DNA of 64,000 bases from sequence record MW822011; one strand, 5' to 3'. Of this stretch, positions 55,542-57,409 are shown in pieces. A program made the position numbers and the translations under genes. Position 1 is the first letter of the stretch; every line of letters begins with the position of its first letter. This DNA is from Shigella phage TB004. Under the pieces are notes generated by a model. It had not been told where the DNA came from and did no database searches. It saw only the letters and a program-made list of their open reading frames with translations.

Positions 55542-55692
55542 ATTCAAATAACATGGGAACAAGCTGGACCTCATGATTCTGTGAGGGATTCCCGCCAACC
55601 TGTAATAAGGTCGAGCCCAAGTGCGGTAATGGGTAAATACAGAAATGGACAATTCATGCGCCACGGAATGGCCCAAATTTAGAGATAACAAA

Positions 55693-56232
55693 ATGAGAAC
55701 ATTTTTAACTGGTCCTTATCTATCCCTGATGAATGCTTTTACACACCATTCTGATGCTAGAGTAGAAGAAATTTGTAAAAATGATTATATCCCACCATTC
55801 GAAGACTTACTCAAACAGTATTGCACACTTCGACTAGATGGTGGACGTCAATCCGGTAAATCAACTGCAGTAACTAATTTTGCCGCTAATTGGTTGTATG
55901 ACGGTGGAACAGTTATTGTTCTTTCTAATACTTCAGCTTATGCTAAAATTTCTGCGGGCCACATTAAAAAAGAGTTTTCTCGTTATTCTAGCGATGATAT
56001 TCGATTCCGCTTATTTACCGATTCTGTCCGTAGTTTTATCGGTAATAAAGGAAGCAAGTTCAGAGGTTTATCGCTTTCGCGGATTTTGTATATAATCGAT
56101 GAGCCTGTTAAATCTCCTGATATGGATAAAATTTACGATATTCATATTGAAACTGTGCACCACTGTTGCAATAGTAAATGCTGCATTGGTGGTATTACTC
56201 GTCCACAGTTTTTCATAATCGGAATGCAATGA
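55693..56232 (+). CDS. small P-loop NTPase-like protein
   Basis: Walker A GGRQSGKST and Walker B-like LYIIDEP; start at MRTFLTG. Confidence 0.55.
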   Translation: MRTFLTGPYLSLMNAFTHHSDARVEEICKNDYIPPFEDLLKQYCTLRLDGGRQSGKSTAVTNFAANWLYDGGTVIVLSNTSAYAKISAGHIKKEFSRYSSDDIRFRLFTDSVRSFIGNKGSKFRGLSLSRILYIIDEPVKSPDMDKIYDIHIETVHHCCNSKCCIGGITRPQFFIIGMQ

Positions 56233-56558
56233 TGACAGACACGCAACTTTTCGAATATCTTTATTTTTCGCCAAAAACTATTAAAAATAAATTGGTGAAT
56301 CATTTTGAAATTTTGGCAAATAACAACGTCTTGAGCGAATTTTATCCTAAGCAATACAAATTACAAAAAGGTGTATTCAAAGGATGCAGAGTTTTGTGCA
56401 CTGCTCCTAATGCAAGATTAATGAATAAAATTCCATATTTTACCATGGAATTTATTGATGGGCCTTTTAAAGGACTAATTACCCAAAGTTTAATGGCATA
56501 TGATTCTGAGCCATTTTTAATTAAAGAGCAATCTTGGATAAATTTATTTTCTAATTGA
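56229..56558 (+). CDS. hypothetical protein
   Basis: 109 aa, ATG overlaps previous stop. Confidence 0.5.
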
Positions 56559-56566
56559 GAGGTTAT

Positions 56567-56929
56567 ATGAAAGCATATCAAATTCTTGAAGGCACGCATA
56601 AAGGTACTATTTATTTTGAAGACGGTATTCAAGCACGAATTATTGTCTCTAAAACTTTTAAAGAGGACTCTTTTGTAGACCCAGAAATTTTCTATGGTTT
56701 GCATGCCCGTGAAATTGAAATTGAAACACAACCTACAGTTAAAATTGAGGGTGGTCAACACCTGAACGTTAACGTTCTGCGTCGTGAAACTCTGGAAGAT
56801 GCAGTTAAGCATCCGGAAAAATATCCACAGCTGACCATCCGTGTATCCGGTTATGCAGTTCGCTTTAACTCTCTGACTCCGGAACAACAGCGCGATGTTA
56901 TCGCTCGTACCTTTACTGAGAGCCTGTAA
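56567..56929 (+). CDS. autonomous glycyl-radical cofactor (GrcA/YfiD-like; T4 Y06I equivalent)
   Basis: C-terminus [60 protein letters not shown] carries the RVSGY glycyl-radical motif; this part is GC-richer than surroundings. Confidence 0.85.
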
Positions 56930-57150
56930 TGGCAAAGATAATTATTGAAGGTTCTGAAGATGTGTTAAATGCTTTCGCCGAGTGGTTTAGTAATTCAGGC
57001 GAACAGCAATTTAATGAAGCGTGGAATATGGGTGATATTGATGGAATTTATCCTACGACAGAAATTTCTGTTCAAGGATATGGAATTCATGAGCCTATTC
57101 GTTTAGTTGAATATGATTTAGGTACTGGTGAGGAAGTAAAATATGATTGA
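56929..57150 (+). CDS. hypothetical protein
   Basis: 73 aa ORF, start overlaps upstream stop. Confidence 0.5.
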   Translation: MAKIIIEGSEDVLNAFAEWFSNSGEQQFNEAWNMGDIDGIYPTTEISVQGYGIHEPIRLVEYDLGTGEEVKYD

Positions 57151-57409
57151 AGATATTAAGGGTTATAAGCCACATACTGAAGAGAAAATCGGTAAAGTGA
57201 ATGCTATTAAAGACGCTGAAGTTCGTTTAGGACTTATCTTTGATGCTTTATACGACGAATTCTGGGAAGTGCTAAATAATTGTGAAGACTATGAATTCGC
57301 GAAGAATTATGCTGAAAGCATCGATCAGTTAACTATTGCTAAAACGAAACTCAAAGAAGCCAGTATGTGGGCTTGTCGTGCTGTGTTCCAACCAGAGGAA
57401 AAATATTAA
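57143..57409 (+). CDS. hypothetical protein
   Basis: 88 aa ORF. Confidence 0.5.

Follow-up and report, generated by a model that had tools for sequence, protein, structure and literature searches.

The vs.6 gene in the window (the whole stretch of Shigella phage TB004 DNA that was analyzed, 64,000 nt; MW822011) is a mosaic, in which an old and diverged phage copy of the whole of GrcA carries a 170-nt tract of present-day E. coli grcA DNA. A spare-part function of the protein, the mosaic structure and repeated replacement of the tract by host-derived DNA are, taken jointly, very probably the best explanation of the data. The gene and its function are already known from the T4 family (vs.6, Y06I), and the finding as stated in the initial annotation, i.e., a GrcA/YfiD-type cofactor with host-like composition, is therefore an ordinary one. 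What the analysis adds is a sharp, host-allele-specific tract at one junction in both E. coli and Klebsiella phages, which is a modestly interesting addition. The literature on Y06I, grcA, phage, and gene conversion yielded work on the biochemistry but no published description of the vs.6/grcA mosaic, and one could still be published elsewhere.

Genomic Context and Protein Family of vs.6

The start of vs.6 is placed as in the 120-aa homologues annotated for T4 and its relatives, and the Shine-Dalgarno-like hexamer ahead of it overlaps the TGA stop (56556–56558) of the upstream gene vs.7 (Table 1). At the 3′ end, the TAA codon (56927–56929) overlaps the vs.5 ATG at 56929 (TAATG). The gene order (vs.8, vs.7, vs.6, vs.5, vs.4, vs.3, and regB) is that of T4 and CT01, the position of vs.6 between vs.7 and vs.5 in the vs.8–regB early cluster being conserved as in the T4 vs.6 orthologue group, and the surrounding 2.5 kb shares 96–98.5% identity with many Tequatrovirus genomes, which identifies the window as a T4-like phage. 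No promoter or terminator belonging to vs.6 itself was found above shuffled expectation; the gene lies within a tightly packed, co-directional cluster. Two genes downstream of vs.6, vs.4 (57143–57409, + strand) matches the Pfam entry Acb2_Tad1_hairpin (E = 1e-19), which represents the anti-CBASS cyclic-nucleotide sponge family. The vs.8 homologue (55645–56232, + strand) contains a Walker-A-like motif, GGRQSGKST, and weakly matches the terminase large-subunit ATPase family phrog_2 (E = 5.5e-6); in the record MT682709, a "large terminase subunit" is given for the vs.8 region and is probably the vs.8 homologue.

Table 1. Coordinates of vs.6 and its component features in the window.
Feature	Position	Strand	Description
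vs.6, Y06I-type autonomous glycyl-radical cofactor gene	56567..56929	+	120 codons + TAA; from the ORF list
Shine-Dalgarno-like GAGAGG	56557..56562	+	4 nt before the vs.6 ATG; seen in the sequence
5′ half, phage-type, AT-rich	56567..56744	+	Codons 1–59; 178 nt; GC 0.33; GC3 0.20
Host-derived tract	56745..56914	+	Second base of codon 60 to codon 116; 170 nt; GC 0.48; 166/170 to E. coli grcA
Gly95 codon (GGT), predicted radical site	56849..56851	+	RVSGYAV motif; alignment to 6OWR G102 and PflB G734
Last 15 nt of the ORF	56915..56929	+	Differ between host and phage lineages and among lineages (GAG/GAA, AGC/AGT, CTG/TTG/CTA); multi-phage comparison

The assignment of the protein to the GrcA/YfiD type was borne out by matches to Pfam Gly_radical (PF01228; residues 60–101; E = 2.2e-18; 67.2 bits against a cut-off of 22.2), to the structure of E. 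coli YfiD/GrcA (PDB 6OWR; E = 4.6e-42), with residues 22–120 aligned by phmmer to 28–127 of 6OWR, and to the NCBIfam model TIGR04365, "autonomous glycyl radical cofactor GrcA" (E = 1.4e-45). The score on TIGR04365, 154.6 bits, lies under the equivalog cut-off of 170 owing to the diverged N-terminal half; E. coli GrcA itself scores 233.9 bits on this model. A full-length match was obtained with PHROG 1209 (phrog_1209; E = 5.4e-63; positions 1–120 of 121). Like other members of the GrcA/YfiD family (TIGR04365/IPR011140), the 120-aa product is a stand-alone small protein ending in a glycyl-radical domain, and the radical-site motif RVxG[FY] near its C-terminus is intact as RVSGYAV. The initial annotation had made its proposal depend on similarity to the C-terminal domain of GrcA or pyruvate formate-lyase (PFL), and such similarity is present for both, since besides the match to 6OWR, residues 58–120 align with 697–759 of PflB (PDB 1H16/2PFL chains; E = 4.8e-26), the C-terminal half thus duplicating PflB ∼693–759.

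The protein shares 119 of 120 residues, and the gene 350 of 363 nt, with T4 Vs.6 (Y06I_BPT4, NP_049730.1), which is named GrcA in RefSeq; the exact protein of the window is already deposited for RB68 and in 26 Tequatrovirus entries. Gene, cluster, and length are the same as in T4, and the T4 copy has the same host-identical tract. The window copy differs in one residue and in three private synonymous G/C>A/T changes, and no functional difference between the two proteins would be expected. With E. coli GrcA, the protein has in common the C-terminal 59 residues, the RVSGYAV motif, the two-part layout and a homologous N-terminal half; it differs in that this half is only ∼28% identical, in being 7 residues shorter, and in its expression, which is driven from the phage early-gene cluster and not from the regulated promoter of the host gene. 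The C-terminal glycyl-radical domain of PflB (693–759), the piece that is replaced by the spare part, has the same fold and motif, but the phage protein is small and stands alone, and its tract DNA is grcA-like, not pflB-like, with the 95–99% matches falling in genes annotated grcA.

Extent and Identity of the Host-Derived Tract

It had been noted in the initial annotation that the C-terminal 60 residues nearly equal those of E. coli GrcA and that the DNA there is richer in GC. Both points held, the second in a form sharper than a compositional trend. In a codon-by-codon comparison, the last 59 residues and the stop were the same as in E. coli GrcA (60/60), with 176 of 180 nt identical, and codons 62–120 showed four synonymous third-position differences and zero amino-acid changes. 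The identity is concentrated in one block: a single best breakpoint was found at window position 56750, where 28/51 positions match on the left side as against 176/180 on the right (Fisher p = 7e-14), far beyond chance. The tract has a GC content of 0.48, compared with 0.33 for the 5′ half and 0.36 for the window as a whole. The tract encodes the β-strand, the glycyl-radical loop, and most of the C-terminal helix, and its identity to E. coli grcA amounts to 166/170 in the window, 169/170 in T4, and 170/170 in both Tequatrovirus fFiEco06 and Mosigvirus RPN187.

All of the complete E. coli genomes (5426/5426) gave a match to the last 185 nt of vs.6 only, at 95–99%, in the gene annotated grcA, and the 170-mer was at least 99% identical in 5156 of the 5426. 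Most E. coli genomes contain 2–3 places similar to the tract, and some up to 21–22. The 5′ junction falls at phage codons 59–61, corresponding to YfiD 66–68, a few residues into the structured half, where the similarity between phage and host becomes high (EGGQHLNV...). At the other end, the last 8–20 nt are phage-specific and lineage-variable, and similarity to the host ceases at the stop codon, beyond which the sequences of E. coli and of the window are unrelated. Three of the four tract differences in the window (56827, 56887, and 56896) are private G/C>A/T changes, absent from all other phage records and from the E. coli genomes; three such changes in 170 nt represent a rate similar to the 2–3% divergence of the window from its nearest relatives elsewhere. 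An assembly artefact or contamination was also considered as a source of the chimera and was ruled out because more than 600 phage genomes that are independent of one another, T4 among them, have the same chimera.

The N-Terminal Half Is Homologous to That of GrcA

The 178 nt of the 5′ half could not be aligned to E. coli grcA at the DNA level, and codon by codon the third positions were near-random. At the profile level, the N-terminal halves of 10 phage and 66 bacterial GrcA sequences aligned end to end (hhalign; probability 97.4%, E = 1.4e-11, 28% identity), the N-terminal half of the vs.6 protein being homologous to GrcA residues 1–67 and thus to the region of YfiD 1–60. The description of this half as phage-specific is hence correct for the type of sequence, but it is not a different domain. 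As the halves align profile to profile, the phage possessed a complete, old, and diverged GrcA homologue, of which the rear part alone carries recent host DNA.

Donor and Direction of Transfer

The best match to the tract outside Escherichia was 156/170 (Citrobacter amalonaticus and Trabulsiella), among 80 other bacterial species that gave the best protein matches in GTDB, a sample that does not include K. pneumoniae. The donor of the tract is Escherichia itself, given 166–170/170 as compared to at most 156/170 for any other genus sampled. The proposed capture from an enterobacterial host is therefore upheld in a narrower form: the donor is Escherichia, and what was acquired is a 170-nt internal tract replaced within a pre-existing phage homologue.

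In bacteria, grcA has a uniform, host-like GC content (0.47 and 0.49) and a conserved ung-grcA context, and the divergence between E. coli and Salmonella is even along the gene (84% and 84%). Since bacterial grcA is uniform and evenly diverged, and only in the phage does the tract stand out as foreign by its composition, the data indicate vertical descent of grcA in bacteria and transfer from host to phage. Phage-to-host transfer was ruled out by this composition and even divergence.

In Karamvirus, Slopekvirus, Pseudotevenvirus, Krischvirus, T5-like, and Aeromonas phages, 43–58 of the 60 C-terminal positions are the same, with DNA 69–82% identical to E. coli, or 70–86% for the set without Pseudotevenvirus, and several of these genera show a phage-like GC3 in the C-terminal part. 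Constraint at the protein level as the cause of the DNA identity was rejected because these other genera use different codons for a peptide that is the same or almost so. A 253-kb contig labeled Vagococcus sp. WN89Y (NZ_JBQPOM010000029.1) contains an enterobacterial-type grcA with 91% aa identity to E. coli; this record, which bears the name of a Gram-positive organism, is probably mislabeled or contaminated.

The Tract Lacks Fixed Differences Between Tequatrovirus and Mosigvirus

Comparison of the window with Mosigvirus showed the flanking genes to be 65–75% identical overall (vs.7, about 74%; vs.5, about 73%; vs.4, about 65%), as against about 90% for the 5′ half of vs.6 and 95–98% for the tract. 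Between 8 Tequatrovirus and 6 Mosigvirus sequences, 9 fixed differences were present in the 178 nt of the 5′ half and 0 in the 170 nt of the tract (p = 0.0036), and the 5′ junction was identical in all Tequatrovirus and Mosigvirus sequences examined. Across 14 phages, the tract showed 18 distinct differences from E. coli, mostly singletons, of which 12 were GC>AT and 6 AT>GC. Such a star-like pattern is expected of a recent or repeatedly refreshed copy that drifts toward phage composition. The E. coli allele is also retained by Tequatroviruses whose isolation host was Yersinia or Salmonella, and tracking of the host is consequently not seen for every host. When variants were checked for matches to minor host alleles, the Mosigvirus C>T variant at codon 65 was present in no E. 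coli genome and is therefore a phage mutation, not evidence of a separate conversion.

Klebsiella Phages Carry Klebsiella-Type Tracts at the Same Junction

In Jiaodavirus, vs.6 likewise encodes 120 aa and combines a phage-type 5′ half (GC3 0.18) with a GC-rich 3′ half (GC3 0.60), the junction lying at the same codons (59–60) as in the E. coli phages. K. pneumoniae-type alleles were recovered from metagenome contigs, which were scanned for a degenerate pattern based on the peptide LLDAVEHPEKY... of the Klebsiella/Salmonella type, and exact protein look-up showed that the product of the bacterial allele found most often is identical to GRCA_KLEP7 of the K. pneumoniae complex. The E. coli-type domain has E77 and K81, where the Klebsiella type has L77 and E81. 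Phage 17-11 has zero mismatches to one such allele (L191, protein GRCA_KLEP7) over ∼160 nt, or 167/170 when the comparison span is held fixed, and phage Shinkou has 4 variant sites in common with a second Klebsiella allele (L210). Against the K. pneumoniae tract, 107 phage records were at least 95% identical and 6 at least 99%. Jiaodavirus PKO111, grown on K. oxytoca, is only ∼90% identical to any bacterial allele sampled. No phage in the collection carried a Salmonella- or Enterobacter-type tract at 95% identity or above, one record falling at 90–95% for each. The Jiaodavirus tracts match Klebsiella alleles at the same junction, which implies that host DNA replaced the phage sequence at this site on no fewer than two, and probably on three or more, separate occasions.

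Predicted Function as a Spare Part for Pyruvate Formate-Lyase

T4 Y06I is one of the two proteins that define the "spare part" repair of pyruvate formate-lyase. The T4 homologue with a PFL-repair role to which the initial annotation referred is vs.6 itself, and its role is taken from Wagner et al. (2001) as cited in PMC8683613: the activase PFL-AE activates both E. coli YfiD and T4 Y06I, and both restore PFL cleaved by O2. The same article describes YfiD 1–60 as disordered, yet needed for binding and efficient activation, and assigns to YfiD 61–127 the fold of PFL 693–759. Since the function of Y06I is known and the window protein is near-identical to it, the latter is predicted to act in the same way, as a spare part for host PFL. 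The host PFL-AE would place the radical on Gly95, the C-terminal ∼60 residues would slot into PflB cleaved by oxygen at G734, and the N-terminal half would aid binding. The presumed benefit is that the flux from pyruvate to acetyl-CoA and formate, and with it the fermentative supply of ATP, could go on in infected micro-oxic cells.

In the laboratory phage RB55 (KM607002.1, species Tequatrovirus T4), vs.6 contains a 13-nt deletion (GTTATGCAGTTCG) near locus position 495–512. With this deletion, the GYAVR codons of the glycyl-radical site are lost and the reading frame changes, and vs.6 is unannotated in the RB55 record. As the deletion destroys the gene, vs.6 is dispensable in laboratory culture.

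Origin of the Mosaic

The tract was probably introduced when phage DNA and the chromosomal grcA of the host underwent homologous recombination or gene conversion. Host chromosomal fragments arising from infection would recombine with the phage gene where similarity suffices, and the heteroduplex would stop on the 5′ side at the EGGQHLNV region and on the 3′ side at the stop codon, which would fix the ends of the tract. Replacement would have occurred more than once, with the radical domain following the allele of the current host genus, of the E. coli type in Tequatrovirus and Mosigvirus and of the K. pneumoniae type in Jiaodavirus. Once present, a host-identical tract would ease later conversions and could in this manner stay refreshed. 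The comparisons point to host DNA having replaced the radical domain in this way repeatedly and within limits set by homology. A more far-reaching form of this proposal holds that the radical-domain half evolves in concert with the host, gene conversion repeatedly overwriting the same 160–170 nt in strictly lytic T4-type phages, with each lineage carrying the allele of the genus (or even the very allele) that it now infects, and with two or more K. pneumoniae-complex alleles in Jiaodavirus; this stands, in our estimate, at about an even chance.

As the main alternative in the E. coli phages, the mosaic could also go back to a single recent capture of the E. coli tract by one T4-like phage, followed by recombination between Tequatrovirus and Mosigvirus in co-infection and no ongoing exchange with the host, which is possible but rather unlikely. 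T4-type phages recombine readily with one another, the common 5′ junction and the lack of fixed differences in the tract would fit this history as well, and a 5′ half conserved at 90% between genera whose flanks share 65–75% is what an introgressed block would look like. However, with nine fixed differences in the 5′ half and none in the tract, the introgressed block would have to coincide exactly with the host-homologous tract, and at least two further host-to-phage events would still be needed for Jiaodavirus, with its two different Klebsiella alleles. Much less probable is an ancient capture of the whole gene from an enterobacterium, after which very strong selection on the protein, on codon choice, or on the structure of the mRNA would have kept the DNA of the 3′ half identical. 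In bacteria and phages alike, the amino-acid sequence of the C-terminal domain varies extremely little, and the host expresses grcA at a high level and with biased codon usage, but in several phage genera the 60 residues are the same or almost so with 69–82% DNA identity and a phage-like GC3, the lineage of the window has accumulated its three private synonymous changes in 170 nt at a pace akin to the 2–3% divergence elsewhere, and the synonymous sites of the tract match E. coli and not Citrobacter or Salmonella. These results already contradict an ancient capture.

Identity alone carries no direction, and T4-like phages might have been the source of the grcA 3′ half in E. coli and Klebsiella. 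This reversal is barely credible in view of the uniform GC, the equal 84% identity of the two gene halves to Salmonella and the conserved ung-grcA context on the bacterial side, the foreign composition of the tract in the phage (0.48 against 0.33–0.36), and the fact that most phage-specific differences run from GC to AT, toward phage composition. A separate question is whether the protein does a different job, its main role being that of a decoy or regulator that might titrate PFL-AE or serve TdcE or the phage NrdD, in place of PflB repair. In vivo work cited in a glycyl-radical review has GrcA acting also on full-length inactive PflB, the homologue of Aeromonas phage Ah1 lies between nrdG and nrdC, and E. 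coli genomes have a median of 3 ORF-like places each, which means that the domain has host paralogues. These points are outweighed by the match to PflB 697–759, which at E = 4.8e-26 compares with 3e-12 or weaker for other solved glycyl-radical enzymes, and by the reconstitution of cleaved PFL by T4 Y06I (Wagner et al., 2001, as cited in PMC8683613), and a role other than PflB repair is considered improbable.

Comparison With Cyanophage Genes and Significance

Intragenic exchange of photosynthesis genes between host and phage has reportedly been described for cyanophage psbA and psbD, by Zeidner et al. in 2005 and Sullivan et al. in 2006. Like these genes, vs.6 is an auxiliary metabolic gene of lytic myoviruses with segments exchanged with the host copy. 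Unlike them, it shows one homology-bounded tract that coincides with a functional domain, with 100% identity to a present-day host allele, and the phages concerned are coliphages and Klebsiella phages. If recurrent conversion is true, T4-type phages keep sampling host chromosomal DNA despite degrading it, and vs.6 would provide a clear and datable case of ongoing DNA flow from host to phage. The tract would then be a built-in marker, a natural read-out of the recent host of a lineage, and the radical domain would seem to need a close fit to host PflB and PFL-AE, with the N-terminal half free to drift.

Unusual Homologues in Other Phages

Several homologues depart from the usual form or setting. 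In Aeromonas phage Ah1 (301–684 of the locus), the vs.6 homologue lies outside the vs cluster, between nrdG, encoding the anaerobic ribonucleotide reductase activase, and nrdC, and thereby adjoins the phage's own glycyl-radical machinery. The homologue of Morganella phage vB_Mm5 (37–690 of the locus) is annotated as 217 aa, with an extension of ∼97 aa before the usual MxGYQ... start, which reflects either a gene fusion or a start called too far upstream. In a Jiaodavirus-like contig from IMG/VR (1501–1859 of the locus), the match to vs.6 covers 359 nt instead of 360 and is out of frame after codon 42, being either a frameshifted copy or a sequencing error. Escherichia phage vB-Eco-KMB39 (OR539219.1, 59733–60147) has vs.6 in two pieces over 415 nt, annotated as two CDS, one of them a 76-aa fragment, which suggests an insertion or frameshift. 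Krischvirus FL20 (292–705 of the locus) has GHHLNANV in place of GQHLNVNV and RISGYATRF in place of RVSGYAVRF at otherwise invariant positions; these substitutions are absent from its close relative JEP8.
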